NCBI GenBank assembly: GCA_041641305.1 | Contig: JBEPYN010000002.1 | Span: forward strand, 384,001-448,000 | Direction: 5' to 3' | Source: Nitrososphaerota archaeon | GTDB lineage: Archaea > Thermoproteota > Nitrososphaeria_A > Caldarchaeales > Caldarchaeaceae | DNA length: 64,000 nucleotides | Shown: positions 10,942-51,461 of the stretch, piece by piece | Numbering within the stretch: the first letter of the stretch is position 1 | Layout of the letters: the number at the start of each line of letters is the position of its first letter | Notes under the pieces: model-generated | What the model was told of the DNA's origin: nothing | Database searches by the model: none | What the model saw: the letters and a program-made list of their open reading frames with translations, nothing else | Position numbers and translations under genes: made by a program

Positions 10942-10959
10942 CTGTCAACATGTTGACAG
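10942..10959. repeat. Dispersed palindrome copy (CTGTCAACATGTTGACAG)
   Basis: Perfect 18-bp palindrome, intergenic, about 22 bp upstream of an AATAAATA box. Confidence 0.9.
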
Positions 10960-10968
10960 CCCCGCTGT

Positions 10969-11577
10969 TTAGCTGACTGCCTCATATGCCTCGACCGCCG
11001 CCGACAGGGTTAACAGCAGCAGGATTATGGGCAGATACTTTCTAACCATCTTTCTGTACCTCTGTGCGAAGCTGTCGGGCTCCAGCTCAGAGGCCTTGTC
11101 CACGACCGCGGCTGCAAGGAGAACGTGTATGCCCTCAAGCAGCATGAAGGCTGCCGGGCCTCTTACGGCCAGTACCGCGGGTATCTGTACGGCGAAGCCT
11201 GCGACATACATGATGGCTATGACGGCCATCATCCTGCTGTAGAACCTCCATCCCACGTCACCGGACCACTTGTGAAAACGCGTCCCAGCCCATCTCCGGC
11301 TCAGCCGCATTCCGTATGCGGAGTGGATTAGGGGCGGCGACGCCAACACCGCTGCCAAAGCTATCGAGTTGTTGAACATTATTGCGGCAAATGCTGACAA
11401 CAACGTGTTCCCCGTGGCAGGGTACACTATGGAGAAGGCCATCATGGTTCTGCCGATGAGGACCAGCCCCTGGGGCGAGCGTAGTATGATGTCGAGGAAG
11501 TTGGGCGGCCCTATCAACATGCTGGCCGCAGCCGACGCCGCCATGGCGAGCATGAGGCATAGGATTAAGCGCTTCAT
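10969..11577 (-). CDS. SpoIIM-like integral membrane protein
   Basis: AIMFNNSIAL, LLEG and C-terminal LLLLTLSAAVEAY motifs. Confidence 0.6.
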   Translation of the reverse strand: MKRLILCLMLAMAASAAASMLIGPPNFLDIILRSPQGLVLIGRTMMAFSIVYPATGNTLLSAFAAIMFNNSIALAAVLASPPLIHSAYGMRLSRRWAGTRFHKWSGDVGWRFYSRMMAVIAIMYVAGFAVQIPAVLAVRGPAAFMLLEGIHVLLAAAVVDKASELEPDSFAQRYRKMVRKYLPIILLLLTLSAAVEAYEAVS

Positions 11578-12713
11578 GTTCTAAGCCTCTTGAGGATGCT
11601 GGCTATCTTGGGGATTAGCTCGAGCCGCGTCAGCCTGGGTTTCAGAAGCCCCATGGAGTAGAGCGACTGGATGAACATGGTCGACAGGGCTGCGAACCTC
11701 AGCAGCGCCATTGACTGGGTCAGGCTCCACGGCATATGGGGCGCGGGTGTTGAGAACCATGTCAGGAGTATAGCCGTGTTGGAGAGCTCCCATAGGGCGA
11801 AGCCGGGCATCAACAATCCCGAGGCTGGGAGAAACGGTAGGAGGAATATGTTTGTCTGGGGGCTGTACCTCGGCGTGAACAACATGTACGACATGGCGGC
11901 CAGCATCATGAACTTGCCCGGCTCCAGCCTGCTCCTAAGCACGTAAAGGTACAGGATGGATACGCCGATTAGCCCGAAGAGAATGGCTGCTCCGAGGCCG
12001 GGGGCTGTGTTGGGCCCCACGGGAGCGGCTGCGTCGGGGAACAGGTGTACGTACCACGCGTTCTCCAAACTCCATCCAGTCTGGGCCTCTACCACGGCTC
12101 TGTATGCCTCTGGAAAAGCGAGGATGGGTGGCAGGGCTACAGCCGCGAATGTTGCGAGATACTTCAGCCTCTCCCTGCCTTGAAGCCTCAGGATGGCGTA
12201 GGGGAGAAAAAGTATGCTGAGAAGCTTGGTGTGGAACCCTAGGGCTAGAAGAGCCGCTGAAACCGTATACCTGCCTCTGGCGAAGGCTAGGACGGACAGG
12301 GCTGTCAGGGCCGCGAGGAATACGTCATAACCGTATATCCCATATACAACCAAGCTGGGCGCGACTAGGTAGACGAGTGTGTATGCGCTGTCTCCGGAGA
12401 GCTGCGCCGCGGCATACGCCATAGCCACAGCCGACGTGAGCACCATGGCTGAGTAGGCGAGGTAGAACCCTACCATGTCTCCGCCAATGCGCCATGCTAT
12501 GATTGATAACGCTCCTGAAAGAAACGGGTACTCGAAGTGTTTCCCGGTATGGTCAGGCTCCACGTAGGGTATCCTGCCTGCTTCAGCGAAGTCACTCCAG
12601 AAGAAGCCCATGATGTCCGTGTATAGGCTGGGCTGGATAAATGGGGAGTGCAGTAATATGCCCAGCCCGATTGTCGAGCACGCCACCATTATCTGTAGAA
12701 GCGTCTCCCTCAT
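11574..12713 (-). CDS. GT-C fold glycosyltransferase (GT87/DUF2029-like mannosyltransferase)
   Basis: LYTDI...IPYVE...FEYPFLSG, YSPQ motif, many TMs. Start placed at ATG 12713 (ATGA overlap with the PMT stop); the track starts at 12764. Confidence 0.8.
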   Translation of the reverse strand: MRETLLQIMVACSTIGLGILLHSPFIQPSLYTDIMGFFWSDFAEAGRIPYVEPDHTGKHFEYPFLSGALSIIAWRIGGDMVGFYLAYSAMVLTSAVAMAYAAAQLSGDSAYTLVYLVAPSLVVYGIYGYDVFLAALTALSVLAFARGRYTVSAALLALGFHTKLLSILFLPYAILRLQGRERLKYLATFAAVALPPILAFPEAYRAVVEAQTGWSLENAWYVHLFPDAAAPVGPNTAPGLGAAILFGLIGVSILYLYVLRSRLEPGKFMMLAAMSYMLFTPRYSPQTNIFLLPFLPASGLLMPGFALWELSNTAILLTWFSTPAPHMPWSLTQSMALLRFAALSTMFIQSLYSMGLLKPRLTRLELIPKIASILKRLRT

Positions 12714-13969
12714 ATCCACGGGACCTCGCCTAGTCCTAGGCTTCCGAGGAGCTGTATCAGCCACTCGGGCTTGGCTGGGTAGAACATTATGAACCAGAGT
12801 ATCTGGGCTGCTAGGAATACCTTGAAGGCTATGGGTGGCAGGTGCTTGTCAAAGATGAGGGGAAGGGTTGCTGCGAGTATAGGCGATACTTGGAGGAAGT
12901 AGAAGCTGTATGTCCATCTCTTGGCGACATAGGCTAGGAACGCGAATGCTCCGAAGTTTACCGCGAACCATCCTAGGGAGATTGCTTCGGGGCTTGGGTT
13001 GTGTATCTTCGAGGATTTTATGACTCCGTACGCGATTGGGGCTATCAGCCAGATGCTCCACCAAAGCGGGCTAGAGACTCCCCAGAAAGCGACTGGATGG
13101 TATCCGGGCGGGGATACCGTGTTTACGAAGTATGGCGCAGGCTGCCTAGTTATGGGAGGTATAATCCATGAAAGGGGTAGCTCAACCTTCCATGGCTCGA
13201 AGTACCTCAGGTTTGTGTGGTAGCTCAGCATGAAGTCGAGGTGGTGCAGCGGCGTGGGGAACACATGTGTCTGCGAGTCCCAGAGGGCCACGCCCGCGAA
13301 GAAGACAAGCAGGGCTGGGAAAGCGTAGAGCCTCACACCCCTCCTCAAGGCCTCCACGGCCCTGTCAAGGTCCCTCGTCTTCCCGTACTCGTGTACGGCT
13401 TCCAGCGCCATCAGAGTGGGTATGATTAGTATGCCGCTGCTCTTTGACAGCAGGGAGAGGCCTGCGGCGACTCCTGAGAGAAGCTTCCTGCCCGACACGT
13501 AGAGGTAGGCGGAGAACACCATGAAGAAGATGGAGGGAGGGTCCAGTATTCCTATGCCTCCCACATTGAAGAACGTCACGTCGGTGAATAGCAGGAGCTG
13601 GGCAGCTATGGCGTACCTGTCTCCGCCTAGCCTCCTCGCGACAAGCCCCACCAACGCTATGGTCAGCGCAGAGAAAAGCACCATGGGAATCCTCCAACCC
13701 CACGGGTTGTCCCCCAAAGCCATGATGCCCAGCATGATTACCCACTTGCTGAGAGGGGGGTGCTCAAGGTTCACAGCCTGGCCCATCAGCATCTTCCTTA
13801 CGGCCGGTATGTAGTGGGCCTCGTCGAAGATGAAGCCGCAGCCGTCGAACGGCGGCTCGAGGCACTCTAAAGGATGTTTCAGTGGGCTGGCTAATGGTAT
13901 GAGAGATAGCCTAAGTCCTAGGTATATCAGGGGCACTATAGTCAACCGGATGAGTTGGTTTGGTTTCAT
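12710..13969 (-). CDS. Dolichyl-phosphate-mannose-protein mannosyltransferase (PMT/GT39-like)
   Basis: FDEAHY, EHPPLSKW, WGWRIP, ILDP, LSK.SG motifs; polytopic. Confidence 0.88.
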   Translation of the reverse strand: MKPNQLIRLTIVPLIYLGLRLSLIPLASPLKHPLECLEPPFDGCGFIFDEAHYIPAVRKMLMGQAVNLEHPPLSKWVIMLGIMALGDNPWGWRIPMVLFSALTIALVGLVARRLGGDRYAIAAQLLLFTDVTFFNVGGIGILDPPSIFFMVFSAYLYVSGRKLLSGVAAGLSLLSKSSGILIIPTLMALEAVHEYGKTRDLDRAVEALRRGVRLYAFPALLVFFAGVALWDSQTHVFPTPLHHLDFMLSYHTNLRYFEPWKVELPLSWIIPPITRQPAPYFVNTVSPPGYHPVAFWGVSSPLWWSIWLIAPIAYGVIKSSKIHNPSPEAISLGWFAVNFGAFAFLAYVAKRWTYSFYFLQVSPILAATLPLIFDKHLPPIAFKVFLAAQILWFIMFYPAKPEWLIQLLGSLGLGEVPWI

Positions 13970-13970
13970 G

Positions 13971-14699
13971 TTATCGTCGGCCTAAACTATAACCTATACT
14001 CCGATGATTTACTGCTGTAGTAACTATGGATGCTAAAACCGCTGGAACGATGATGGACGCCGCTAAATTCTCCAACGTGTAGTTAGGTATTCTGAGGGCG
14101 TAGGCAGGGCAGGAAATATCGCATTCAACTCGTTTAACCCTAGACAGCCATACAAGGTATACATCAGCGAAGGTTATGTCTAATATTGGCCTTGTTTCAT
14201 CCATCCTGTAGAGCATGAGGTACCTTTCCTTCCCATTCCCGAGGGGTGTGAGGTCGGAAGCTCCAAGTAGATGGCCGAATTCATGCAGGAGTACGGAGCG
14301 AAGCAGCGCGCGGTTGTCGACGATGCTGCTTGCTATTGATATGTTGGCCCCCTTCAACCTAAATGTCTCCTTATCGAAGGCAAGGTTGAACCCGCCGAGT
14401 TCGGGGGACTTGATAGCCCGCTCCGAGAAGTTTATGTTTGCGAAGCAGCCGTCCTTGACAACCTCGATGTAAATACCTTTCAGTTCTCTGAAAACGTTAC
14501 TGAAGGTCTCTAGTGCCTCGTTCCATTTGCTTGCAGCCCATCGTGCATCTTCCTGCACCTCCTCGGGAGCACATACAAGTATCCGATTTGGTATGAAATC
14601 TATGTTGATTTTGAGCTCAATTACGTAGGTTTCTGAAGATGCGTATAGTATGGAAACGGTTGACGGTATCAAGAGTAGGAGGAATGTCAATGAGGTCAC
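13971..14699 (-). CDS. Membrane-anchored zincin (matrixin/M10-like) metalloprotease
   Basis: Signal peptide, AASKWN, HEFGHLLGASD zinc motif, Met-turn LML, C-terminal TM. Confidence 0.8.
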   Translation of the reverse strand: MTSLTFLLLLIPSTVSILYASSETYVIELKINIDFIPNRILVCAPEEVQEDARWAASKWNEALETFSNVFRELKGIYIEVVKDGCFANINFSERAIKSPELGGFNLAFDKETFRLKGANISIASSIVDNRALLRSVLLHEFGHLLGASDLTPLGNGKERYLMLYRMDETRPILDITFADVYLVWLSRVKRVECDISCPAYALRIPNYTLENLAASIIVPAVLASIVTTAVNHRSIGYSLGRR

Positions 14700-14714
14700 T
14701 TGGCTAATGGCGGG

Positions 14715-15491
14715 TCACCCCCCTCGTACATCGAGTTCTACGTGGAGGGTCAGCGATACCGTGACAGGCCTGTTCTCTTCGGGATAGGAATACCAGTACC
14801 AGAATATGAAGTCGTCACGATATGTCGGGCCGCCAGCCCTGAAAGTGTACCCTGTGTAGTCGCTCCAGCCGTCAACATATCTAACGAGTATTGTATTGCG
14901 GTATTCGCCAGTCCGTATCCACCAAATAAAAGTTGTTCCAGCGGGGGTCATCCAACCGTTGAAGAGGAAGGAGTTCGTGGTTGAGTTCTCGCGGACAACC
15001 TGAACCTTTATCCAAGAGTTTTGGCTGACGGTCACAATCTGGTTCCTCGGGTCGGGTCTGAGGAAGAGAAGGTAGCATTGTATGTTCTTGTCCAATGTAG
15101 CGTTGTAGTCTATGATGTTGTGGCCGAGCTTGAGCTGGTAGACGCCGCAGAGCTGGAATCTCCCTCTCCTCGCAAAATCGTGGTAGGTTTCGACTGGTAC
15201 TGGGAACGGTTCGACGGCCATCACGTTCCAGAACACCAGCCCCGAGACCACCACCGCGAGTCCCGCGATGACGTATTTTCTCTCAGCCTTTCCTATAAAA
15301 ACTAAGGCTGCCAAGACGAGTCCTGGAAGGTTCCAGAATATGTAGATGTTGAACCATCCGGGGAGTTCGGGGAAGATGTGGTTAAGCGGGGCGAGGCGTA
15401 CAGTTCCTATAACCACGGCGATGGCGAACATGGCAAAGTACGCCAGCAACGCAAGCCCTACCTTTCTCAGGTTTTTCCTAACTCGGGACAT
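14715..15491 (-). CDS. Hypothetical membrane protein (three N-terminal TMs plus aromatic-rich domain)
   Basis: ORF track; hydrophobic segments. Confidence 0.6.
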   Translation of the reverse strand: MSRVRKNLRKVGLALLAYFAMFAIAVVIGTVRLAPLNHIFPELPGWFNIYIFWNLPGLVLAALVFIGKAERKYVIAGLAVVVSGLVFWNVMAVEPFPVPVETYHDFARRGRFQLCGVYQLKLGHNIIDYNATLDKNIQCYLLFLRPDPRNQIVTVSQNSWIKVQVVRENSTTNSFLFNGWMTPAGTTFIWWIRTGEYRNTILVRYVDGWSDYTGYTFRAGGPTYRDDFIFWYWYSYPEENRPVTVSLTLHVELDVRGG

Positions 15492-15537
15492 GGTCAGTCA
15501 CTAGGTTTTTTCCAAACATTTAATCATTTGAGGCCAG

Positions 15538-23159: not shown

Positions 23160-23173
23160 GTCAACATGTTGAC
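23160..23173. repeat. Dispersed palindrome copy (GTCAACATGTTGAC)
   Basis: Intergenic, 23 bp upstream of a TTTATCC box. Confidence 0.9.
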
Positions 23174-26086: not shown

Positions 26087-26323
26087 TGTCAACAAGTTGA
26101 CAACACTACAAACCTTTTTGTAGCTACTCTTGCTTGGCGTTATTCTGTCAACATGTTGACGGAGCAGGTACCTCATTGTTTCTACGGTGGTTGTCAACTT
26201 GTTGACAGTTTGTTTTTTAGCTATTTATATGGAACTTTGTGTCAAGCCTGTCAACTTGTTGACAGAATATCCTTAAACATGAGTAGATACAAAAATCATT
26301 GTAGATTTGTCAACATGTTGACA
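26087..26323. repeat. Cluster of five GTCAACWWGTTGAC palindromes with 43-bp terminal inverted repeats
   Basis: Copies start at 26088, 26147, 26193, 26250, 26309; the reverse complement of 26087-26129 matches 26281-26323 at 36/43. Confidence 0.92.
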
Positions 26324-27616: not shown

Positions 27617-29732
27617 CTCCCTCCTCCACTCTCTTCCTTCTCATTCTTCCCCCCCTCATCCTTCTCGCGAATACTGCTCCGAAGCCTGCTGCAGCGACAA
27701 CCATGCCAGCGAGCAGGATGAGGTCCATCAAGGCTGGAACCTGTATGGGGCCGCTTGACTGCGGCTGTCCCGGCCTCTTGACTGCTATGGGAATGGTTGC
27801 GAGCACCGTGTCACCCATCCTCATGATGATGGACGCCGCCCCCTCTCTGGCCTCTGGATAGGCTGAGACCCTGAACTGCACCATGGTTTTGCAAAGCGGC
27901 GTGACGGATACCTGGACCGTCGACGGATTCGTGGAAACGTATCCCGGCATGCCAGTGACCCAGAGCTGTATCTCCACCTTGCCGGAGAACCCGTTCCTCG
28001 GCGTCAGCTCGACTCGGATGTCTCTGCTCGAGCCGGCGAAGACCTCCAGACCCTTGGGCGCCGACGCCTCCAGCCGAGACGGCGGATAGCTTTCCTCCAC
28101 CAGCCTGTATATCGAGCCCGAGGTGACTACCAGAGCCTCCCTGCTGCTGAGCCACGCCACGGCTCTAACCGCTTCCGGTACGGCGATGGGTAGCAGAGTC
28201 GCGTTGAAGCCGTCATATAGCACGAGCTCTCCGCCTGACGTGGCGAGCAGGGCATAGGCGCCTCGCGGGTTAATGGATGCTGCGGTGAACCTTGTCTTGC
28301 CGAATGATGTGCTCCGTATCTCGTCCTGCAGGAGGTAGGCTATCTGGCCTGAGTCGCCTACCGCTATGCCTCCGCAAGCCGTGTCAACAACGTTAACCAT
28401 TCTCCCACTCATCTTGGCCACCCTCGGCTCGTCGCCCAGCCGCACCGCAACCTTGTCACCTACAGCGAAGCCGCCTGAGACCGAGTAGAGGTCCGCCGAA
28501 GTCGCGGAAACGACCTTGACCTCACCGTTCTCCGACACATCGGCCACTCTCCCGCCTTTGCCAACAAGCGTCAGCCAGTAGCCGGGCCTCCTCGACGGCG
28601 CCATGTCGTAGAAGTCGGTTGCCCGAACATCTGCCGCTGCCGGCCTGAAACCTGTTCCGTCGAAGACCCATAGCTCGCGGCCGAGGACAGCTACTTTCCC
28701 CAGAGAAAAAGCCACGCTCCTTATGTTGTCGCCGAGCGAGTAGGATGTGAAAAACCCGCTCCGGTATATGAGGAAGGTGCCGTCCTCCGCTGCGATGTAG
28801 GCTGTGCCGCCGCCGTCGGTGACCGCATCCACGTATCTCAGCGACGGGGCGAATACACGTCTGACACCGTTCTCAGAAACGGCTGCGGCGTATCCCTTGT
28901 AGCCCACGGCCATGATTGATGAGCCTTGAAGCACTAAATCCGTTGGAGACTGGTCTAGGTTCACCAAGGTGGACAGCTTTCTGTCATAGATGTCGTAGAG
29001 AAGGATAGACTGGCCCTGTGCAAGCAGAAACCCTCTTGGATGCGGCTTCATGAACGCGAACGCGCCCTGCTGAACAAGATTCTCTCCATTCATCAGACCT
29101 CTCTCAGTCAAGGCCCAGACCTTTCCCGCGAACACGTATATCTGGCGGATAGCGGCTTTAAGGTCTGCTACCGTGGAAACCTCGCCGCTGGCGACATCAA
29201 TTGATAAGAGCTTGGAGCCCGAGGCCGCATAAACCCTGTCGCCAGCAGGTGCTATGGATGAAAGCTTCCAGCCAGTGTAAACAGTTCTCTCCACCACACC
29301 ACCAGCCCTGTATACAGTGACGCTCTGGTCGCCTAGGATGTAGAAGCGGTCGCCAGATAGGCGCACAGCCTTGTAGTCCATGGTCGCCGGCCTGTAGGTC
29401 ACGAAGCTCAGCGTCTCAGGGTCTATCTCCACCACCGTACCAGACCTGCCGACCGCGACGCAGAGCCTTCCACATGCCACGCTGAACAGGTCCGATGAGG
29501 CGACGGTCAAAGCATCCGCGCGGCCGCCTCCCCACACCACAACCGCGCCCGACTTACCCACAGCCACCACTTTCTGAGCGGCCACGTCGACAGCGTAGAG
29601 GTCAGCCGATATTGTTAGCCGCTCGAGCCTGAAGCTGTAGCCGATGTCCTGCCCCTGGACTGGGAGGATGAGGGGCTGAACAAGGATTACCGCTGCCAGC
29701 AAGGCTAATGGAGCCTTCCTCACTACTCCCAC
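27603..29732 (-). CDS. Cell-surface beta-propeller protein with C-terminal Ig-like domain and membrane anchor
   Basis: Signal peptide; repeated AVG.SG blades (VAVGKSGAVV, VAVGRSGTVV, IAVGDSGQIA); C-terminal TM plus basic tail. Confidence 0.75.
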   Translation of the reverse strand: MGVVRKAPLALLAAVILVQPLILPVQGQDIGYSFRLERLTISADLYAVDVAAQKVVAVGKSGAVVVWGGGRADALTVASSDLFSVACGRLCVAVGRSGTVVEIDPETLSFVTYRPATMDYKAVRLSGDRFYILGDQSVTVYRAGGVVERTVYTGWKLSSIAPAGDRVYAASGSKLLSIDVASGEVSTVADLKAAIRQIYVFAGKVWALTERGLMNGENLVQQGAFAFMKPHPRGFLLAQGQSILLYDIYDRKLSTLVNLDQSPTDLVLQGSSIMAVGYKGYAAAVSENGVRRVFAPSLRYVDAVTDGGGTAYIAAEDGTFLIYRSGFFTSYSLGDNIRSVAFSLGKVAVLGRELWVFDGTGFRPAAADVRATDFYDMAPSRRPGYWLTLVGKGGRVADVSENGEVKVVSATSADLYSVSGGFAVGDKVAVRLGDEPRVAKMSGRMVNVVDTACGGIAVGDSGQIAYLLQDEIRSTSFGKTRFTAASINPRGAYALLATSGGELVLYDGFNATLLPIAVPEAVRAVAWLSSREALVVTSGSIYRLVEESYPPSRLEASAPKGLEVFAGSSRDIRVELTPRNGFSGKVEIQLWVTGMPGYVSTNPSTVQVSVTPLCKTMVQFRVSAYPEAREGAASIIMRMGDTVLATIPIAVKRPGQPQSSGPIQVPALMDLILLAGMVVAAAGFGAVFARRMRGGRMRRKRVEEGVEEV

Positions 29733-32236
29733 CTCATCCTAGACAAAGCCTTTCTACGAATCCTCGGAACCACGAGCGCAATCACTGCTGCAACCGCGAC
29801 AGCGACCGCCGGCGTCGCAATGAGCTGTATGTCGGAGAGCGAGAGATGGGCGCCGCCGAAGCTGAACGCCACAGGGATAATGATAGTGGTTTCTTCATCG
29901 CTCTGCAGGTCTATCTGTCTCTGAACCTGCTTGGTGGAGTATGAGACATAGAGCGTGTACACGCCGGCGGGCACTCGGTCAAACGTCAGGGTCGAGCCCA
30001 CGAGCCGCGCCACAGGCCTGCCGCCGCGGATGAGGTCCACATCCGATGTGAGAGGCTGCCCCAGCTCGCCGACGACCTTGACAGTTAGCGTCGCCAGCCT
30101 CAGCCTAACCGTCTGCACCTTGCCCGGCGTGAGGCTGCCTTCTGCGACCGGGACACCTCTATAGGTCAGCTTGTAAGGTATCTGTTTGACCGGGGCCTGA
30201 GGCAGAGTAGCTCTCCCATCTCCCCCGGTTACGGCCGCGCCACCCGGCGTCTCAACCCCGACCTGCGCCACCGGCACACCGTTCTGGTCGAGGACATAGA
30301 CAACCGGCCTACCGGCCTGCACAGTCAAGCTATACAACGAGCCGTTCACGTCTACAGTGCCACTATAAACCTCCTCATCATCTAGGAGCACGGATAAGCG
30401 GTAGGAGCCATGGGGCAGGAGTCCGAAAGACGCAGAGCCGTTGACAACCTCTGCGGAAACAGTCTGGCCCCCAAGCTTCAGGGACGCGGTCGCCCTCGCA
30501 AGAGGCTCACCATCCAATGTCAACATGTTGACAGCGAACCTGCTCACCTTCGCAGTCAAAGTTACCTCAGGCCCATCCACACGTATCTCCCCCTTCAGGA
30601 CAACCGCGCCCATATACTCCGCCTCGAACACGTAGACGCCGGCTGTGGAGTTGCTTATCACGGCCTTGCCGTCGATGACTTGGAACAATTTCTTCCATGG
30701 GGCTGAGGGGGAGTGGACGAGAAGCTCCTTTACTGGAGCAGGCTCCCCATCAGCGGTCAACATCTTCACAATCAGGTCGAATACAGATAGCCTGACCTCG
30801 TGTCTGCCATGGTTTTCAGGTATGGTGTATGAGAAGCGCCCGACGACGGCTTCTTCGCCGAGTAGGGAGTTGTAGAACCTAACCTCAACCGAGTAGCTCC
30901 CCCTCGGAAGCCTCTGGAACGCAACCTCCTCACGTGATGATGCTGAAAGCTCCTCCGGAAACAGGGTTGCCGTAGCGTTGGCGGTGAGCTTCTTTCCGTA
31001 AAAGTCTCTGAAGACTAGGATGATGTCGCCGACGTCTGCCACTGCTTCCAAGCGCCCTCCAGGGTCGGGTCTGGCGAATGGCTCATCCACTTTCACCCGC
31101 CCGCTGTAGACTTCGACGTCTTTCCAGAAGGCTTTGACAGGGTACTCGCCCCACGGCACGTTGACGAAGACAGCCCGCGCCTCGCCACCGTCGGCAGGAG
31201 CCGACGCCGCCGCAGCCACTTTACCCAGCCTCACCATAGCCTCAAGCGGCCTACCGGCAAGGTCCCTGACAACCACATGAACCTCTGCCACATTGCACTT
31301 CACAGCCGGGTTGGCCGCGAGGTCAGCCAGTATCTGGAAACGTTGATGGACTAGGTAGGTCTCACCATCATATGGCGAGGTGTAGTAGGCCCTCACCAAG
31401 TAACCGCCTTCAGGCACCCTCTCCAACACCGCGTATCCCGTAGAGTTTGCTCTGAAGGTGTACTGGGCCCCTGTCAACTGGCTCTCAAGAACAAGCGTAA
31501 CATTGGGGACGCCGTGGAATCCCCAGTAATCGATTAACTGGACCGAGGCCGTCCTATATGGCTGTATCAACACGTAGTCGAGGTCCACTTGAACCGTTAG
31601 AGGGCCTATACGCCTGCCATCCGGGTAGGTGAATATCGTCCTGAACCTGAGCTCGGCCATAACCCTCCCGGTCGGCGAGTCCTGAGGAGGCGCGACAGTG
31701 ATGTTGAAGAGCTTCTCAACCCTTTCAAGCCTCTCGCCACGCGGTATATCAGCCTCCGCCACAGGCTTCCCGAAGCCGGCCACCCATATCTCCAGCCTCG
31801 TCACGTTGAAGACACCGTCTTCAAGGTTCTTCATCCTCAGCATCGCCCAGCCCCTGCCGCCGGCGTGGATGTCGCCGCGCCACTCAACTATGTCGGCTAC
31901 AACCCTCCAGAAACCCTCCGTGGCCCTGAAGAGGCATGTTGTGTAAACCATGCCCGGGGAGAAGACAACCTCATCCGACCTGAGCCTGTAGCCGCTGGCC
32001 GAGACATAGTAGCGGTATGCTCTGGGAGCGTCGCCGCGGAGCTCGGCGTAGCCGGTAGAGTTAGTGACAGTGCTGAAGCTGTAGCCCACCGTCTCTATCA
32101 CCACGCTGGCCCCGATAATGGGAAGGCCGTTTACACAATCTAACACGCGGATGTAGAACGTCTGCTGCTGCGCATACGCGAGAGGCAGAAGTGCGACAGA
32201 TATGATGAAGGGTATGAGAAGCTGCAGCCGCCTCAT
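29723..32236 (-). CDS. Cell-surface protein with tandem carboxypeptidase-regulatory-like (prealbumin-like) domains and C-terminal anchor
   Basis: Repeated V.D..G.P...A.V and LP.G.Y.V motifs; signal peptide; C-terminal TM plus RRK. Confidence 0.78.
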   Translation of the reverse strand: MRRLQLLIPFIISVALLPLAYAQQQTFYIRVLDCVNGLPIIGASVVIETVGYSFSTVTNSTGYAELRGDAPRAYRYYVSASGYRLRSDEVVFSPGMVYTTCLFRATEGFWRVVADIVEWRGDIHAGGRGWAMLRMKNLEDGVFNVTRLEIWVAGFGKPVAEADIPRGERLERVEKLFNITVAPPQDSPTGRVMAELRFRTIFTYPDGRRIGPLTVQVDLDYVLIQPYRTASVQLIDYWGFHGVPNVTLVLESQLTGAQYTFRANSTGYAVLERVPEGGYLVRAYYTSPYDGETYLVHQRFQILADLAANPAVKCNVAEVHVVVRDLAGRPLEAMVRLGKVAAAASAPADGGEARAVFVNVPWGEYPVKAFWKDVEVYSGRVKVDEPFARPDPGGRLEAVADVGDIILVFRDFYGKKLTANATATLFPEELSASSREEVAFQRLPRGSYSVEVRFYNSLLGEEAVVGRFSYTIPENHGRHEVRLSVFDLIVKMLTADGEPAPVKELLVHSPSAPWKKLFQVIDGKAVISNSTAGVYVFEAEYMGAVVLKGEIRVDGPEVTLTAKVSRFAVNMLTLDGEPLARATASLKLGGQTVSAEVVNGSASFGLLPHGSYRLSVLLDDEEVYSGTVDVNGSLYSLTVQAGRPVVYVLDQNGVPVAQVGVETPGGAAVTGGDGRATLPQAPVKQIPYKLTYRGVPVAEGSLTPGKVQTVRLRLATLTVKVVGELGQPLTSDVDLIRGGRPVARLVGSTLTFDRVPAGVYTLYVSYSTKQVQRQIDLQSDEETTIIIPVAFSFGGAHLSLSDIQLIATPAVAVAVAAVIALVVPRIRRKALSRMRWE
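30518..30533. repeat. Palindrome copy inside a CDS (TGTCAACATGTTGACA)
   Basis: Perfect 16-mer within codons for VNMLT. Confidence 0.85.
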
Positions 32237-32290: not shown

Positions 32291-33640
32291 TTAGCCCGGG
32301 ATATGTATGTAGGGAACAGGCGCGGCTACGCCTACTCCTTCCTCTTGGTCATAATACACTCCGCCCACAAACGTCAACGGCTTCGGCTTAGTCAAGAGGT
32401 AGATGTCAAAAGACTCCACACCAAGGGTTACGCTATCCTTCAACAGGTTGACTAGCAGGCCGTAGTCCATCAGCTCATTAACCGCCGGCCTCATTACGAA
32501 CGAGTCGAAGCCATAGGCCTCCGCAAGCCAGAGAAGCGGCGCCAGTTCCGCGGGAGCAGGTTTTTCCTCAACGAGGACGTCTGCTCCCTGAGGAGTCTTC
32601 ATGTAGAGGAAAAGGCCCTCGCCATGTTTTGAGATAAAGTCCTCCAGTATCCAGAAGGAGTTGCCCATAATCCTTGCCAATTCCCCTCTCACATGCTCGT
32701 TCAGGGGTAGCTCGTATAAGAACGAGCCCGAGTCATCTCGGTAGACTACACGTGCCAGAGACCTTAGAAACTCGGCCGCAGCCCTCACCCCCTCCGGCTC
32801 CATCTTTAGGAAGTCGGGGTAAAAATGTGGCGTTCTCTCCTGCGGCCGGCGCGCCGCCGTAAGCCTACCATATCCCGGGTCATAGGGCGTGAGTTCGCCG
32901 AGTAGCTTACCTGGCTGCATAGGAACCAGCGAGTCGTTAAGAGCTGCTATGACCAGCCGTGTTCCGATTGGCAGGTATGGGCAGAGCATCTGAATCGGAA
33001 ACCCTGTCATCGTATAAATCGACGCGGCGTAGCCGTTGACGCGTGCGGCCAGCTCAAGATATTGCTCAGGCTCCAGACACGTGAGGTACCCCACCCTATC
33101 CATGTATGGGTACTCCTCGCTCTCAAGCAGCTCGTCGAGGCGGCTGTCCCTGAAAGTGGAGAGGCCGCTGGTCAGCTTCTCCTCCACCTCGGCATCCGCC
33201 AGCCTCACAAAGAACTTTACAGCCTCAAAATGGGTCTCGAGAGGCAGCTCAACATAGTGCTGCCCCTTATAGACGTAAACAAGAGGAGTGTAACAATGCC
33301 ACGAGCCTCGTTTTGTGTAGAGATGGACACCGGCCTCGGCAAATGCTTGAAAAAGCTTGTAGATATCCGACCCGCGTACCGGCAGCCAGCCTTTTCCAAA
33401 AACCACATCCTCCCCCGGCCCAATGAGGAGGAGCTCTGCCAGCCCCTTAGTCTCAAGCATTCCCAACAGCTTTACGAGCCTCTCCAGCGTCACCAGCTCC
33501 TCATGAAGCTGCGTATGAGAGACACGGCCGGAAGAGGCCAGCGTCCTCAGAGTTCTCAAACGCTCCGAATAAACACGGTTAAGAGACTCCACATTAGCTT
33601 CCCGAGGCATAGCAACACATGTGAACCCACAGCCACGCAA
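32291..33640 (-). CDS. Hypothetical protein; paralogue of 42039-43286
   Basis: Shared YL.LA..VNGYAAS.Y..TG.PIQML.P, LG..TPYD and GEGL.L motifs. Confidence 0.75.
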   Translation of the reverse strand: MRGCGFTCVAMPREANVESLNRVYSERLRTLRTLASSGRVSHTQLHEELVTLERLVKLLGMLETKGLAELLLIGPGEDVVFGKGWLPVRGSDIYKLFQAFAEAGVHLYTKRGSWHCYTPLVYVYKGQHYVELPLETHFEAVKFFVRLADAEVEEKLTSGLSTFRDSRLDELLESEEYPYMDRVGYLTCLEPEQYLELAARVNGYAASIYTMTGFPIQMLCPYLPIGTRLVIAALNDSLVPMQPGKLLGELTPYDPGYGRLTAARRPQERTPHFYPDFLKMEPEGVRAAAEFLRSLARVVYRDDSGSFLYELPLNEHVRGELARIMGNSFWILEDFISKHGEGLFLYMKTPQGADVLVEEKPAPAELAPLLWLAEAYGFDSFVMRPAVNELMDYGLLVNLLKDSVTLGVESFDIYLLTKPKPLTFVGGVYYDQEEGVGVAAPVPYIHIPG

Positions 33641-33660: not shown

Positions 33661-33678
33661 GCGTCAACCTGTTGACGC
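33661..33678. repeat. Palindrome copy (GCGTCAACCTGTTGACGC)
   Basis: Lies between a TATTTATAG box (minus strand) and the start of 32291-33640. Confidence 0.8.
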
Positions 33679-45097: not shown

Positions 45098-45125
45098 AGG
45101 CTTAAGCCGCCGTTTGCTGATGGCT

Positions 45126-45262
45126 CTGTCAACAAGTTGACAGCTCGGGCCCTATTAACTACTTATATGGAACTTTATGTCAAGCCTGTCAACTTGTTGA
45201 CAAAACCCATGGAATATAAGTAGCTACAAATGAAATTTGTGGGACTGTCAACATGTTGACAG
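45126..45262. repeat. Cluster of three GTCAACWWGTTGAC palindromes; direct repeat of part of the 26-kb cluster
   Basis: Copies at 45128, 45188, 45247; 45163-45202 matches 26225-26264 at 39/40. Confidence 0.92.
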
Positions 45263-45359
45263 CAGTTAACCACAACCACCATTATAGGTTCGGCCTCCAT
45301 ACTTTTCACCACGGTCGGATTCGACTACGCTGTCACCCGGTTGAGGTTCATAGACCATG

Positions 45360-46737: not shown

Positions 46738-47632
46738 CCGCAGCCTCCTCCTCGCTCAATAGCCTCCTCCTCATCTCGCTCTCCAGAGGCATGGGCTTCG
46801 CGCCGTCGACGGGCACTAGGCCCTTTTCCGTGAGCCTCATGTAAATGCCTATGTTGTCAGGCTTCTCACGATGCGCCTCGACGACGAAGAACCTGAGGTC
46901 TCCCTGAAGCCTCCATATCCTCGCTATGACCTTGGCTATGTAGCCTAGAAACCGGCCGCCGATATAATCCTCGCCATATGTTCCTAAGACGATGTCAACA
47001 TCCCTTATATCTACAATCCCTTTCCTCGCCGACTTCTCCAGCTCCCGGATTTGGTGCTGTTCGAAAGCCTTCTTCGCCTTCGAGGCGCTCCACGAAGTGA
47101 AGATTATGCAGGCCCCTGTCTGGGAAGCGTAGTTCAGCAACGTCTTGGCCTCCAGCTCAAGCTTCCCCATTAGCTCGCGGGCGATGCTGCCGACATGCTC
47201 CGGCGGAGCGCCCATGACGCGCTGGTGATAGTGCCATGCAACGGAGTCGACCACATATAGGCCTATGTCATGTGTTTTCCTGAGCTGGTCCCAGTCCTTC
47301 ATTATCACGGCATGCTGTTCAGAGAGCTCGTTCGCCTTGAATATCTGTATCCGCGAGATTATACGGGGTATGTCGGCTTCGTGTACGCCGCTTGCAGAGG
47401 CGAGGTTGTAGAACCTTAGCTGGCTCACGCCGCCGCTTTCTGTGTCGAGGTATAGAACAGCCTTATCCTCATCCATAGCAGTGCGGAGAGCCGCTTGCAT
47501 AGCGAACGTGGTTTTACCCGCTTTCTGGCTACCGTAGACAAGCATGATGCTTGAGCGAGGTATTCCATACATCAGATCGTCGAGGGCCTTGACGCCGGTG
47601 CTCATGTAGAGTTTGCGTATTAGCGCCTCCAT
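46664..47632 (-). CDS. RadA/RadB-family recombinase-like ATPase (no N-terminal HhH domain)
   Basis: STGVKALDDL, YGSQKAGKTT, YLDTE, VVDSV, IGG..L.Y; start placed at ATG 47632 just after the parB stop (track 47686). Confidence 0.82.
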   Translation of the reverse strand: MEALIRKLYMSTGVKALDDLMYGIPRSSIMLVYGSQKAGKTTFAMQAALRTAMDEDKAVLYLDTESGGVSQLRFYNLASASGVHEADIPRIISRIQIFKANELSEQHAVIMKDWDQLRKTHDIGLYVVDSVAWHYHQRVMGAPPEHVGSIARELMGKLELEAKTLLNYASQTGACIIFTSWSASKAKKAFEQHQIRELEKSARKGIVDIRDVDIVLGTYGEDYIGGRFLGYIAKVIARIWRLQGDLRFFVVEAHREKPDNIGIYMRLTEKGLVPVDGAKPMPLESEMRRRLLSEEEAAVAQDSDGNREAGQSTAGRMGRRKG

Positions 47633-47633
47633 T

Positions 47634-48641
47634 TCACGCAGGCCTCCATACATCGCTGTTGGGGAAACCGCATTCAAAGCAGACAACCGCAGAGCCGTGA
47701 GACACGCCGCGGAGCGGGGCTAAGCAGTTGGGGCAGAGCAGGACCTTGATGTGTTGAAACGGTGGGTCGAGAGAGGTTACGGGAACCAGAGCGCTCACGG
47801 GGTCGCCTACACGGGCCCATTCATGAGATAGCTTAGCCGTGCTCTTATCAGGTATTGCGACTCTCGCTTCGGGAGAGGCCAGAATCTCGTGGAGAGGTCT
47901 TGAGTTCTTGGAGCTCTTGAAAACCTTCGGCCTCCAGTCCAGCTTCTCAGCTACGTCTCTTATCGTGGGCTGGGCCTCGCTGGCCTGTTCATCGGGTCTG
48001 GAGTCGGCCTCCTTGTCGGGTTTTTTGCCGATTTCGCCGAGCTTCTTGAGGACGCGGGCGGCCTCGCGCGCAATCTTCTTTGAGACCTGCTTTTTCTCTT
48101 GGCCTCCCCCGCCCCCCGCCTTGTCCACGCCGCCAGCCTCTTTATTCTCAGGCTCCCTCTTCTTTCTGCCGTCGACGACCTCTATGTCGTCGGATATATC
48201 TATCCCGGCGTAGAAAAGCACCCGCCTTATCTCCTCATGGGAGACTCCAAGTAGCGCGGCTGCGGCTCTATACGAGCCAGCAACCTGACGGGCTTTCTGG
48301 TATACCGCAGCCTTCTCATGCTCATTAAGGGTTTTCTGCGTCACGTTCTCGGTAAAACTGGTAACCAGAGCCTTCTTGTCATTATATTTTACCACCTTGC
48401 AGGGCACCTCATTCCAGCCGAGGGCTCTGAGAGCATATAGCCTGCGGGAGCCGCAGATTACTCCATATTTGCCGTTTTCAAGGGGCCTCACGATGAGCGG
48501 GTTAAGCAGCCCAACCTCTTTTATGCTCTCCATAAGGTTGGAGACATCTCCTATGTCCACCCGAACATTCATCGGGTCCGGGGTCAGCTTATCTATCGGA
48601 ATCTTTTCCTGGACTATTTCCTCCTTTTTTTCCTCGCCCAT
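47634..48641 (-). CDS. parB: ParB/Srx-family partition protein with HTH and C-terminal Zn finger
   Basis: IPIDKL.P...NVR, LMESIKEVGLLNPLIVR, CGSRRLYAL, TEN, HTH SYRAAAALLGVSHEEIRR, CPNC...CFEC. Confidence 0.88.
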   Translation of the reverse strand: MGEEKKEEIVQEKIPIDKLTPDPMNVRVDIGDVSNLMESIKEVGLLNPLIVRPLENGKYGVICGSRRLYALRALGWNEVPCKVVKYNDKKALVTSFTENVTQKTLNEHEKAAVYQKARQVAGSYRAAAALLGVSHEEIRRVLFYAGIDISDDIEVVDGRKKREPENKEAGGVDKAGGGGGQEKKQVSKKIAREAARVLKKLGEIGKKPDKEADSRPDEQASEAQPTIRDVAEKLDWRPKVFKSSKNSRPLHEILASPEARVAIPDKSTAKLSHEWARVGDPVSALVPVTSLDPPFQHIKVLLCPNCLAPLRGVSHGSAVVCFECGFPNSDVWRPA

Positions 48642-48730
48642 CCTTACATCACTTCCTCATAAAAGATGTATTTAACCAGAGAAGGCCCTGAAAGTGCGGA
48701 CACCATTAACCAGTTATAAGCAACATTTCC

Positions 48731-48746
48731 TGTCAACATGTTGACA
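48731..48746. repeat. Palindrome copy 90 bp upstream of parB (TGTCAACATGTTGACA)
   Basis: Perfect 16-mer in the hel308-parB intergenic gap. Confidence 0.9.
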
Positions 48747-48753
48747 CCCAGAA

Positions 48754-50808
48754 TCAGCCAACACCTCTCCTCGAAGCCTCGACAATCCTAGCCGCGACCG
48801 CTGCACCTATCAGCGGTATTTTCTCCAGCCGCTCGACGCCTGCCGCGGCCACGTCGGCGATGCTCCGGATGCCTGCGTTGTAGAGGGCCCTAGCCCTAAC
48901 CCTGCCGATGCCCGGCAGCGAGCATAGCGGCAGCAGCTCCTCCCTGACACCGTGCTTGATTCTCTCGGAAAGAATGAGAAACACCTTTGACGCCTGACGT
49001 CGTCCGACCATTACGGCAAGCTCAGAAGCCGCCTGAGCTATCCACGAGCCAGACTCGCTTAGGACATGGATGTCCCCCGGCGCGGCGCCAAACCTGCTAC
49101 CTATAGTGGCCTCGCTAATCTCCTCAATCCACGCCTTGAGGACGCTGGCCTTTGCGATGGCTGGGCCGTCGAAGTCGTCGTAGTCCCTGAACCAGTCGAG
49201 GGCAGGCTGTATATGGGATAGAAGCTCGATGTCGGGTGTGGAGCAGATGGTCAGGAGAGCAACGTCGTCAGCCTTCGGACCTGCTTTCTCAACATCCTCA
49301 AGCCTCGAAAGGATTATGCGGGCCGACAGCGGGTCGATGTAGAGGTCTGCAACCCTCTTGCCGAGTCGGGTAGCCGCCCACCCACCTTTCTCATGCTTGA
49401 TGAACTTAGCCGCCTCGAGGTATGAGACGGCGCTCTCCACCTTATCCATCAAGCCACGCTCCTGTCTATATGCCAGAGTCCTCTCGAAGAAAGTTGTCAG
49501 CTCTTGGTGACCCGAGTAGCCGCTCGCCACGAGGCCGAGGATGTGGAACCTCAGCCTCCTCTGGTCAGGCAATGTGCTCACAACCGGCTCAAGCTCCCCG
49601 TTGACATACCTCTGCAGAAACGCGCTCCTCTGCCTAGAGTTCTTGGCGACTATCACTGCGAGCCCCTCTCTATCGAACCCCGGCCTACCAGCCCTGCCGG
49701 CTAGCTGCTTATACTCCATGACAGTCATGTCCTCGGCGCCCCTCTTAACATCAGGCACTATGACCGCGCGGGCGGGGAGGTTTACGCCCGCGGCAAGTGT
49801 TGGCGTCGCGACTATGGTCTTTAGAAGCCCTTTCCTGAATCCGCTCTCGACAGCGGCCCTCTGCTGAGGCGATAGGCCGGCATGGTGGAAAGCCGCTCCC
49901 TGCCTGATGCAGCGGGCGAGACGTGATGAGAAGTCGCCTCCGTCGTAAACCTCCTCAGCCAGAGAAGCTAGATGCTCAGCCCCGCTGCAGAAAGGCCTGA
50001 GGGCTGATGCGATGCTCTCCGCCAAGCTCTCCGCCACTCTCCTGCTCGAGGCAAAAACCAGAGCCTGGCCACCCTCTGAAACAGTTTTCAGGACAAGGTT
50101 TTTCACAGGGTCGCCGCTCAGCCTCGGCAGCTTCTCAGTAGAGCCGTCGGCGTAGTGGAGCTCGTCTCTATCATGCTGGTACACGGCCTCCTTGAGCGGG
50201 ACAGGTCTCCAGCTAGTGGCCACCACGTCAGCGCCCGCGAAGTCGGCAAGCTCCTCAACATTTCTGATTGTGGCGCTGAGTAGAAGGAGCTGGGCGCCGG
50301 GAAGCTCGGCGAGTATGCGGGTCACAAGCATCTCAAGCGTCGAGCCCCTCTCCTCGGCTGCAATCAAGTGTACCTCGTCCACGACCGCGAGCGACACAGA
50401 CTTTACCCACGAGGCTTTGTGTCTGAGGACGCTGTCCATCTTCTCATTGGTCGAGACGATGATGTCGTAGCCGCTTAGCCACTCTTCTGGCTGGTCATAG
50501 TCCCTGCTTACGGCGGCAACCCTGTAGCCTTCTCCGAAAAGCTCCTCGAAATACTGCCTCTTCTCACTCGTTATAGCTCTCAACGGAGTGAGGTAAACCA
50601 CCTTGCCTCCTTTCTCCAAATGCTTAGACGCCGCCAGCGCGGCTAGCAAAGTTTTTCCGCTCGCCGTAGGAGTCGCCACCAACAGGTTGCGTCCGTCGAG
50701 CAGCCCCTTAGAGACCGCCTCGGCCTGAGGCGGGTAGAGCTGCTTGATACCCATGGACGTCAACTTCTCAGCCAAGTAACGGGGGATAGGGAGCTCGCTC
50801 ACCATCAA
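48754..50808 (-). CDS. hel308: Ski2-like SF2 DNA helicase Hel308/Hjm
   Basis: LYPPQ, TPTASGKT, DEVH, LSAT, FHHAGL, TLAAGVNLPA, QLAGRAGRPG, LYIDP, C-terminal HhH PGIGRVRARAL. Confidence 0.93.
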   Translation of the reverse strand: MMVSELPIPRYLAEKLTSMGIKQLYPPQAEAVSKGLLDGRNLLVATPTASGKTLLAALAASKHLEKGGKVVYLTPLRAITSEKRQYFEELFGEGYRVAAVSRDYDQPEEWLSGYDIIVSTNEKMDSVLRHKASWVKSVSLAVVDEVHLIAAEERGSTLEMLVTRILAELPGAQLLLLSATIRNVEELADFAGADVVATSWRPVPLKEAVYQHDRDELHYADGSTEKLPRLSGDPVKNLVLKTVSEGGQALVFASSRRVAESLAESIASALRPFCSGAEHLASLAEEVYDGGDFSSRLARCIRQGAAFHHAGLSPQQRAAVESGFRKGLLKTIVATPTLAAGVNLPARAVIVPDVKRGAEDMTVMEYKQLAGRAGRPGFDREGLAVIVAKNSRQRSAFLQRYVNGELEPVVSTLPDQRRLRFHILGLVASGYSGHQELTTFFERTLAYRQERGLMDKVESAVSYLEAAKFIKHEKGGWAATRLGKRVADLYIDPLSARIILSRLEDVEKAGPKADDVALLTICSTPDIELLSHIQPALDWFRDYDDFDGPAIAKASVLKAWIEEISEATIGSRFGAAPGDIHVLSESGSWIAQAASELAVMVGRRQASKVFLILSERIKHGVREELLPLCSLPGIGRVRARALYNAGIRSIADVAAAGVERLEKIPLIGAAVAARIVEASRRGVG

Positions 50809-51461
50809 TCAGCAACCACCTCGGGCTTTGACCATCCCAGCTCCGGAAGCTCCGTGACCTCAACCATCCTAGCGTCTACGCTTTCGCCGGGTAGGAATGA
50901 GAGGACCCTGGCGTATAGGTTGCCCAGCATGTCCCTAGAGAGAGACACCACCTCGCCGACGTAGTAGGTTCTGCCACCGCATTCAAGCCCTCCTACCCCG
51001 ACCCTACACGGGCCCACGAATACTTCATGGCTGTATGCATCCCTCCAGAAAACGATAGGGCGCCCCTTCCCACCGCATTCCTGACAGGGGGAGCTGCCTT
51101 GAAGCCCTGTCTCGAGATAGGTGCCGCAGCTTCTGCACCTCATTGACCAGAGGCAGGGCAGCCGCCGCCAGATGCTCGGCTTCCCGCGGAAATGTTTAAC
51201 GAGGTCGTACTCCTTGCTGCTTATGAGGAGCCACAGGGCACCGTCCCTGTCGACATACGCCCGCTCCAGCTCGTATAGAGGAAGCCCGAGCACCGGCTGT
51301 ACACCGTAAGAGGCCAGCCTCTCCCTCATCCTACGCCCCTTCACCACGAAGTCCACATAGGTGACTCTATGCATCCATGAGGTGAACGGCCCTACCATGA
51401 AGCGACCCAGCCTAGCCACTTTCCTCCACCCCGCTGTCAACATGTTGACGGCTTTCCTCAC
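50805..51461 (-). CDS. Hypothetical protein with a Cys4 zinc-finger-like motif
   Basis: CRSCG...CQECGG; overlaps both neighbours. Confidence 0.6.
   Translation of the reverse strand: MRKAVNMLTAGWRKVARLGRFMVGPFTSWMHRVTYVDFVVKGRRMRERLASYGVQPVLGLPLYELERAYVDRDGALWLLISSKEYDLVKHFRGKPSIWRRLPCLWSMRCRSCGTYLETGLQGSSPCQECGGKGRPIVFWRDAYSHEVFVGPCRVGVGGLECGGRTYYVGEVVSLSRDMLGNLYARVLSFLPGESVDARMVEVTELPELGWSKPEVVAD

Follow-up and report, generated by a model that had tools for sequence, protein, structure and literature searches.

A palindrome confined to an integrated conjugative element of Candidatus Caldarchaeum most likely serves as a docking site for a regulator encoded by the element

The palindrome GTCAACNNGTTGAC occurs 18 times in the 1.66-Mb genome of its host, a hot-spring Ca. 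Caldarchaeum, and because it is found only in one island and almost always just upstream of predicted promoters, its most likely role is that of a docking site for a regulator encoded by that island. The island is an integrated conjugative element of 116.7 kb (7% of the genome), whose limits were set from the empty site mapped in a sister genome, that of Ca. C. subterraneum (G009, one complete contig). A first-pass annotation of the sequence had proposed that the motif might delimit the element. A scan of the replicon against the chromosome bears this out: all 18 copies span C2:354026-435449, within the island, and the other 1.54 Mb contain none, so that the motif is far from equally frequent genome-wide. 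For Caldarchaeales genomes and MAGs, the motif also provides a practical marker by which islands of this family can be delimited.

In the window, which is the whole stretch of 64,000 nucleotides that was analysed, an exact search recovered every one of the 14 copies listed in the first-pass annotation, with starts at 10944, 23160, 26088, 26147, 26193, 26250, 26309, 30519, 33663, 45128, 45188, 45247, 48732 and 51436. Its estimate that almost none would arise by chance agrees with the 0.00 matches per shuffle obtained in 100 dinucleotide-preserving shuffles. The central pair is AT, AA or TT in 13 of these copies and CT in one. When the 18 genome copies are compared, the full conserved site is 18 bp long, CTGTCAACWWGTTGACRG, with a T at position -1 in 17 copies, a C at -2 in 12 and a G at +2 in 13. 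Both near-matches reported earlier, at 2787..2800 and 58021-58034, are genuine sites with one mismatch, and the window holds a third at 32439-32452; the one at 2787..2800, inside a large ORF (2-2956), is possibly a decayed site. Genome-wide, copies with one mismatch number 3 in the island versus 10 in the remaining 1.54 Mb. The AT-rich cargo lacks copies as described, with no palindrome between 33676 and 45128. A host regulator was also considered as the reader and dropped, with three matches to TGTCAA-N4-TTGACA outside the island; all three lie within ORFs or at ORF ends, and one recurs in many relatives.

Ten of the 12 independent loci are intergenic, whereas intergenic DNA makes up 8.5% of the island (P about 1e-9). 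At promoters predicted from sequence alone, a TATA-like box lies 9-26 nt downstream of the end of the palindrome, consistent with the earlier remark that several copies precede such boxes, the predicted BRE position follows the palindrome by 2-19 nt, and the centre of the palindrome is 23-120 bp upstream of start codons. The single site at 10944..10957, upstream of the type IV pilus operon, is 11 nt past the stop of a 202-aa gene and 65 nt ahead of the ATG of the 227-aa first gene, with a TATA-like box (AATAAATA) 21 nt downstream on the minus strand; the pilus-operon promoter of the MAG G003 has a variant-class site in the same place (L058:8520). The site at 23160..23173 is 45 nt upstream of a plus-strand ORF (23218; based on ORFs, not gene calls) that heads a CHRD/GtrA gene group, and a TATA-like box lies between the two. 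The copy with the central CT, at 33663..33676, is 23-43 nt upstream of the start of a 449-aa ORF, again with a TATA-like box, about 9 nt downstream on the minus strand. Between Hel308, whose stop comes 8 nt before it, and a ParB-family gene, whose ATG follows after 91 nt (about 90 bp had been given), stands the site at 48732..48745; elements with a ParB of 79% and 68% identity have this site in the same place. Two copies are within coding sequences, as annotated: 30519..30532 in an 837-aa ORF (29723-32236), and 51436..51449 in the last 13 codons of a 748-aa gene, that is in its variable C-terminal tail, 17 nt before the start of a 204-aa gene.

It is also evident that sites occur at syntenic positions in related islands, and that in one lineage a variant motif, GTCAA-WNNW-TTGAC, occupies those same positions, with the GTCAA/TTGAC half-sites kept and inner W positions that are A or T and often not complementary. 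Three orthologues of the 748-aa gene keep the tail site unchanged despite different flanking codons, and in G002 the tail bears the variant motif in another reading frame, overlapping the stop codon. Since the tail site is kept with different codons and in a different frame, selection appears to act on the DNA itself. One might instead see in the palindrome a 3' stem-loop or processing signal of upstream transcripts, as 6-7 sites lie 8-26 nt past an upstream stop codon and the 18-mer can fold into a 7-bp hairpin (about -6 kcal/mol). Such a role at the RNA level is highly improbable: more than 30 copies are invariant and show no compensatory changes, there are sites within divergent promoter regions and coding sequences, and the non-pairing inner positions of the variant class fit a protein that reads DNA and not an RNA hairpin. 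To our knowledge, hairpins are not required for archaeal termination either. Elements with a ParB of 100%, 79% or 68% identity carry the canonical motif, and the element with a ParB of 47% identity carries the variant motif at syntenic positions, its recognition helix being changed (SHEEIRRVL versus SHETIRLAL). Compared at the sequence level, the motif classes point to a DNA-protein site co-evolving with its reader.

The best candidate for the reader is the product of the ParB-family gene (47634..48641, minus strand, 335 aa), because it has a ParB-CTPase fold with an HTH, the island has no ParA, and a conserved site lies just upstream of the gene. Its layout comprises a ParB_N CTPase-type domain (PF02195, Pfam E 1.3e-15), an HTH, a disordered linker and a Zn-ribbon C-terminal domain, and residues 7-150 are modelled at pLDDT 74-91. 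Matches to Noc and Spo0J (E 1e-14 to 1e-12) extend through the HTH; this HTH, already claimed before, has helices at 107-121, 124-131 and 135-144 that line up with the first part of its Noc/Spo0J counterpart. Foldseek matches include Noc (7nfu, at 1e-10), ParB structures, the KorB co-complex 8qa9 (rmsd 3.0 over 149 columns) and, as a weaker fold match, 5k5d (pNOB8). The nucleotide-binding GxxRxxA motif is present, with GSRRLYA aligned to GERRWRA of Noc, and S65, R66 and R67 are invariant across six homologues; in box III (ENVTQK versus ENLQRE) the E-N is kept and the Arg is replaced. Judged by its sequence and modelled fold, the island protein is a bona fide ParB-CTPase/HTH protein. Its C-terminal domain of ~110 aa, with a conserved CPxC...CxxC Zn ribbon, is modelled at pLDDT 72 and had no significant structural match in the fold search. 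A search for this ParB in species genomes outside the genus gave only an unrelated match, in Patescibacteria.

We tentatively favor the ParB-family protein as the reader, working like KorB or BisD and not in partition, a reading that its sequence and model make quite plausible if still short of probable. A dimeric protein encoded by the island would bind the palindrome as a common cis-acting site, through which the promoters of the 117-kb integrative conjugative element would be joined into one regulon comprising the pilus operon, the operon for the T4SS and DNA processing (with parB in it), the glycosylation/pilin group and several small-gene units. ParB would load at the 18-bp sites that immediately precede BRE/TATA, singly or stacked on arrays of three or five sites, and would then repress or activate the adjoining promoters, its own included. 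Both the CTP-dependent clamping or sliding of ParB and the sign of regulation are what we infer.

The first-pass annotation had left the choice between a parS and a master operator, of which the operator is well supported by the exclusivity to the island, the proximity to promoters and the syntenic conservation. As a true centromere, the palindrome would serve only the segregation of the excised circle, with the arrays as the partition complex and the single sites as accessories. The F plasmid sopC is an array of regularly spaced sites, which the arrays here recall, and a palindrome of 16-18 bp together with a ParB-family gene on the element, with a site adjoining it, would also agree with a centromere. 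Such a pure partition role is unlikely and we give it very little weight, as the element is integrated, the placement of sites is tied to promoters, and the island was not found to encode a ParA or another Walker-type partition ATPase. A search for the ParA-type Walker motif (KGGxGK[ST]) in ORFs of at least 55 aa in C2:340-470 kb returned none, and the only P-loops found there belong to HerA, pilus, RadA-like and T4SS ATPases. Moreover, a survey of archaeal canonical ParB proteins found them to be rare and rarely linked to ParA, and judged a role in segregation unlikely (PMC12704722). The likeness to bacterial parS that had been pointed out holds for the size and the TGT...ACA ends and does not extend to the sequences, which are unrelated.

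Eight of the window copies are grouped in two arrays. Array 1 (26088..26322) has five sites with start-to-start distances of 59, 46, 57 and 59 bp and lies between the stop of a 161-aa ORF and the start of a 175-aa ORF; its spacers are of type A, with GAGTAGMTAC and an inverted repeat, or of type B, with a conserved TATA module. In array 2 (45128..45260) there are three sites, with start-to-start distances of 60 and 59 bp, that alternate with spacers as site-B-site-A-site; the array is flanked by the mini-MCM stop (45360) and the start of a thioredoxin-like gene (45097). Each array, of five or of three sites, contains its own conserved TATA module. The regular spacing of 57-60 bp, the conserved inner modules and the position of array 2 after the mini-MCM gene could also be taken as signs of an iteron replication origin, or of a transfer origin or clt-like site, whose reader would be the mini-MCM or the FtsK/HerA-like T4SS ATPase, with the single copies as by-products; this would also agree with the fact that no relaxase is known for such archaeal ICEs (PMC6563490). 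We give this reading little weight, for ten single sites stand at predicted promoters over 81 kb, and what precedes the cluster in orthologues is the last gene of the operon, whichever that is, and not the MCM gene. As an origin, the arrays are without a long AT-rich unwinding stretch and a far better origin-like structure is present elsewhere in the island (C2:449,190-449,600); as a transfer origin, a palindrome would offer a translocase no direction. In this structure, about 230 bp of AT-rich DNA are flanked by two clusters of four 9-bp repeats that recur every 13 bp.

A control circuit of the kind favored here, with the ParB-family protein acting on an operator network, has so far been described only from bacterial plasmids and islands. 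By analogy, the closest counterparts are KorB with its OB operators on the IncP-1 plasmid RK2 (PMC11790492) and BisD-bisS on ICEclc. Twelve binding sites are given for KorB (Kostelidou & Thomas 2000, as cited in PMC11790492). The island shares with KorB-OB a single short palindrome that is repeated about a dozen times, confined to the mobile element and placed at the predicted promoters of several operons at variable distance as well as inside genes (two intragenic sites here), and a candidate reader that has ParB-CTPase/HTH domains, a long flexible linker and a separate C-terminal domain, in keeping with the match to 8qa9. Unlike RK2, it resides in an archaeal host with TATA/BRE promoters, has no IncC/ParA partner and no recognizable KorA, and holds arrays of three and five sites with predicted internal promoters; the C-terminal domain of its ParB is a Zn ribbon without structural match, and binding is here only proposed. 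BisD uses two bisS sites, from which 11 promoters are reached by sliding, has an activator domain and acts with BisC (PMC12409273). Like BisD, the island ParB is a ParB-like protein that belongs to an integrated conjugative element and would have no part in partition while integrated, and loading at palindromic sites and control of transfer-gene promoters are proposed for it as well; unlike ICEclc, the island has a site at almost every regulated unit, and neither an activator domain nor BisC is seen. In the account of thaumarchaeal ICEs (Krupovic et al. 2019, PMC6563490), a ParB-like gene is coupled to a TFIIB homologue, and its passages on ICEs, ParB and TFIIB mention no cis-acting site. By that account, the island is an element of the same type, with VirB4/VirD4-like ATPases, a FlaI/TadC-type pilus, pilins and no relaxase, and it likewise has both TFB-like and ParB-like genes, although these are 56 kb apart and not adjacent. 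Noc and bacterial ParB-parS are what the N-terminal domain and HTH match best in sequence and fold, and they have multicopy palindromes of 14-16 bp, but their site sequences are unrelated, the island protein has no membrane-targeting helix and no ParA, and a mobile island, not a chromosome, is marked. The Sulfolobus pNOB8 AspA-ParB-ParA system likewise comes from a conjugative element of an archaeon and includes a protein with a ParB-N domain; there, in Schumacher's work of 2015 (cited in PMC12704722), AspA is reportedly the site-specific binder and ParA is present, whereas neither AspA nor ParA was found in the island. A conserved multi-copy motif may also occur in Sulfolobus conjugative plasmids, to which we give no weight.

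Several observations weaken the case for ParB as the reader. The complete contig of G009 has five perfect sites, four in an array and one further, yet no orthologue of the island ParB or of its C-terminal domain, and no ParB remnant was found beside the array. G003 has 18 variant sites, and orthologues of ParB, the 748-aa protein and mini-MCM were not found in it, although it is a MAG, where absence is weak evidence. As to the co-variation of motif and ParB HTH that the first-pass annotation had put forward as a check, the motif class changes where ParB is most divergent, and in these two genomes sites occur with no ParB found. Furthermore, the parB promoter of G002 bears a different, single-copy palindrome. 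The DNA-binding region of the island ParB is modelled as a three-helix HTH core only, followed by the disordered linker, and is shorter than the canonical ParB DNA-binding domain. Within the genus, a 204-aa TFB-like gene tracks the canonical motif class, being present only in the two genomes with canonical sites (G000 and G009).

The network and its regulatory role would be kept if another element-encoded factor were the reader, which we regard as possible but doubtful: an unannotated small regulator, the HTH and Zn-ribbon family of G003, or a factor acting with the truncated TFB paralogue, with ParB itself having a separate job in DNA processing or transfer. Besides the persistence of sites without ParB, this is suggested by a 266-aa protein of G003 that joins a different N-terminal HTH-like region to the same C-terminal Zn-ribbon domain, by arrays of four or five sites 0.4-0.6 kb downstream of the TFB-like gene (G009 and MAG contigs L073-L075), and by a 105-aa island protein present in 5 of 5 site-rich genomes of the genus and not found in 7 site-poor ones. 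However, the same co-occurrence is expected of any island core gene. The TFB-like protein is the sole such candidate with a recognized DNA-binding domain; it would bind BRE as a monomer, while the palindrome lies upstream of the BRE position, and variant-class genomes without the TFB-like gene still have networks. A pattern scan of the species genomes gave no TFB-like relatives. Pfam assigned no DNA-binding family to 20 small ORFs adjacent to sites or to the ORFs flanking the arrays; most small island ORFs are without family assignment, so an unrecognized regulator is still conceivable.

The present analysis supplies a map of cis-elements that covers 18 sites and two arrays, distinguishes two specificity classes and shows syntenic conservation, and a candidate function for this archaeal ParB that, if true, would extend KorB/BisD-type clamp regulation to TBP/TFB-type promoters. 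There is a minor but real chance that archaeal conjugative islands have private transcription, with a ParB-type CTP clamp, a truncated TFB paralogue and motif classes for specificity or immunity. ParB on palindromes upstream of BRE/TATA and the TFB paralogue would then switch the transfer, pilus and DNA-processing operons together, and GTCAAC..GTTGAC versus GTCAA-WNNW-TTGAC would represent specificity or immunity groups by which related islands could coexist, or by which small ParB-less elements such as those in C. subterraneum could use the regulator of a helper island. In metagenomes, the only match to a three-site pattern was a high-GC bacterial tandem repeat. A two-site pattern search of species genomes and viral contigs gave mostly bacterial operator pairs, together with an archaeal contig (L042) that is homologous to the end of the G009 mini-island.

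An exact search of the window recovered the palindrome GTCAACNNGTTGAC at all 14 coordinates listed in the first-pass annotation, and its negligible chance expectation was upheld by 100 dinucleotide-preserving shuffles of the window, which gave 0.00 copies. With up to two mismatches allowed, three extra copies of one mismatch each were found: those at 2787 and 58021, already noticed as near-matches, and a third at 32439. In the whole genome (1.66 Mb in four contigs, 52% GC), of which the window covers C2:384001-448000 (C2, contig 2), 18 exact copies are present, all within C2:354026-435449, and none in the other 1.54 Mb; the motif is thus exclusive to one island, a point left to such a scan. 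One-mismatch copies show only mild island enrichment (3 versus 10 in the rest of the genome), and when the 18 exact copies are aligned, conservation extends over 18 bp, CTGTCAACWWGTTGACRG.

DNA comparison with the complete sister genome of Ca. C. subterraneum (G009; one contig, 1,680,938 bp) reveals an empty site, at which C2:344006-346800 on the left flank is matched by C1:312706-315500 of G009 and C2:463468 onward on the right flank by C1:315496 onward. These junctions place the island at C2:346,801-463,467 (116.7 kb). It encodes VirB4-like and VirD4/HerA-like ATPases, a type IV pilus operon with a tubulin-like gene, Hel308, ParB, two RadA-like proteins, a mini-MCM, HerA-NurA, Hjc, further helicases and a TFB-core paralogue of 204 aa. 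In predicted gene content it matches the thaumarchaeal ICE type, whose published hallmarks are a ParB-like gene together with a homologue of TFIIB, and for which no relaxase was found (PMC6563490). An element copy from another sample is 99.4% identical to the window over 16.9 kb and diverges past window 41781, from where its cargo is different and includes a helicase and a PLD-like gene; this divergence marks the AT-rich 35-42 kb stretch, in which the palindrome is absent as first reported, as an exchangeable cargo slot.

When each array is counted once, the sites form 12 independent loci, 10 of which are intergenic, although genes called across a 64-kb part of the island leave just 8.5% of the DNA non-coding (P ~1e-9). 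In the direction of transcription, the palindrome is usually reached 8-26 nt past the preceding stop codon, a TATA-like box follows 9-26 nt downstream, and the next start codon is 23-120 bp from the palindrome centre. Sites of this kind precede the pilus operon, a CHRD/GtrA gene group, a 449-aa gene, a thioredoxin/M50 unit, parB, several genes of 70-80 aa, and the unit of Hel308, parB and a second, distinct 204-aa gene, the first after the 748-aa gene. Because the distance to the TATA box varies, a BRE-like element and an activator dependent on fixed helical phase are both disfavoured; such spacing would suit operators or loading sites. The motif is most probably a master operator of a mobile element, and this half of the original proposal stands, whereas the other half, a classical parS, does not. 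That the sites act purely as a partition centromere is unlikely, since the element is integrated, site placement is tied to promoters, and a ParA-type Walker A motif was absent from every island ORF searched. By analogy, the palindrome network would be a new archaeal variant of element-wide control of the KorB/BisD kind.

Two arrays, of five sites (window 26088-26322) and three sites (window 45128-45260), have spacers (26102-26308 and 45142-45246) in which two kinds, A and B, alternate. Type B spacers contain a conserved TATA module, which would initiate transcription at the next palindrome. In type A spacers, GAGTAGMTAC is always 18-20 nt ahead of the next palindrome; behind it comes a short inverted repeat, CTACAAA...TTTGTAG, whose loop is variable and which may represent either a second site for a protein or a small structured transcript. 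The same composite architecture is seen in a 4-site array of G009, in a 5-site array of three MAG contigs and, condensed, in a site pair of another related locus (L055). This recurrence indicates that the arrays are conserved composite control regions, each predicted to combine one or more promoter-like elements with a second motif. It is unlikely that they are instead a replication origin or transfer site, because single sites occur at promoters over 81 kb, the gene adjoining the cluster differs between orthologues, and a far more origin-like structure lies at C2:449,190-449,600 of the island. The latter, 1.2-1.6 kb past the window end, consists of two inverted clusters of four GGTCGGCCA repeats each, with a 13-bp period and ~230 bp of very AT-rich DNA between the clusters; its layout recalls iterons on either side of an unwinding element, and it is a candidate for the island's replication origin or for a control region.

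Homologues of ParB (window 47634-48641, - strand) share 79% (L053), 68% (L055), 47% (a contig of the related genome G002) and 36% identity (L056), and the operon around each of them is of the same kind. L053 and L055 bear the identical palindrome at three places matching the window: the ~750-aa gene tail (window 51436), the Hel308-parB gap and the operon end. At the gene tail the 14-mer is intact among orthologues although the flanking codons wholly differ, and G002 has there a variant, GTCAA-WNNW-TTGAC, in another frame and overlapping the stop codon. The variant is strongly enriched in G002, G003 and G004 (8, 18 and 5 copies; ~0.4 expected, 0-1 in controls), appears to form a second specificity class, and is found at syntenic positions, for example before the pilus operon and downstream of a 158-aa gene. 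Conservation across differing codons and frames and at syntenic positions suggests selection on a DNA site. In the variant class the half-sites GTCAA/TTGAC are fixed, and the inner A/T positions are often non-complementary, which makes an RNA hairpin unlikely and favours a protein dimer that would read two half-sites one helical turn apart.

Variant copies are often paired, 72 bp apart, in a conserved ~100-bp module that has a TATA box immediately next to the second site. At least six such modules of G003, a MAG, lie beside IS110/TasR-like genes near element or contig ends. In G009 and one MAG contig, ~190 bp separate a degenerate three-site array from the end of a 4-kb mini-island that has an IS110/TasR-like gene at its boundary. 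These reader-less elements may be relics, or small elements borrowing the putative regulator of a larger island.

In the scanned parts of the island, only ParB and the TFB-like protein have a recognised site-reading DNA-binding domain. In ParB, whose best matches are Noc, Spo0J/ParB and KorB, the ParB_N fold is confident and is accompanied by GSRRLYA, a box resembling ENLQRE and an HTH; a 70-residue disordered linker then leads to a conserved Zn-ribbon domain, for which a fold search gave no structural match. We consider it slightly less than an even chance that ParB reads the palindrome. In its favour, the site noted ~90 bp before parB lies 91 bp upstream and is conserved in three elements, the motif class switches together with recognition-helix substitutions in the lineage of the most divergent ParB, and KorB and BisD offer precedents. 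However, G009, a complete genome, keeps five canonical sites in perfect form plus two near-sites, but it encodes neither an orthologue of ParB nor any relative of the C-terminal domain, and a ParB remnant next to the array is likewise absent. In G003, with its 18 variant sites, orthologues of ParB, the 748-aa protein and mini-MCM were not found, and a 266-aa protein shares only the Zn-ribbon domain with ParB; moreover, the G002 parB promoter bears a different, single-copy palindrome.

That another protein reads the same network is a somewhat less likely alternative. The TFB-core paralogue (C2:375222-375836, outside the window), which lacks the N-terminal Zn ribbon, was found within the genus only in the two canonical-motif genomes, the present one and G009, and arrays lie 0.4-0.6 kb downstream of its gene in G009 and the three MAG contigs. 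All five site-rich genomes also share an island protein of 105 aa; both co-occurrences may simply mark island lineages.

In G002 the Zn-ribbon domain also has a gene to itself (128 aa; L020:3404-3790), which belongs to the ParB operon and has a variant site ~100 bp upstream. In the G003 266-aa protein (L061:3744-4544) it is fused to an unrelated HTH-like N-terminus, a homologue of which, with an in-frame stop, is found in G009. Six-frame translation of L061:5500-6500 (G003 contig C43), adjoining the gene of this protein, gives short strings of peptide that recur in the manner typical of CRISPR arrays.
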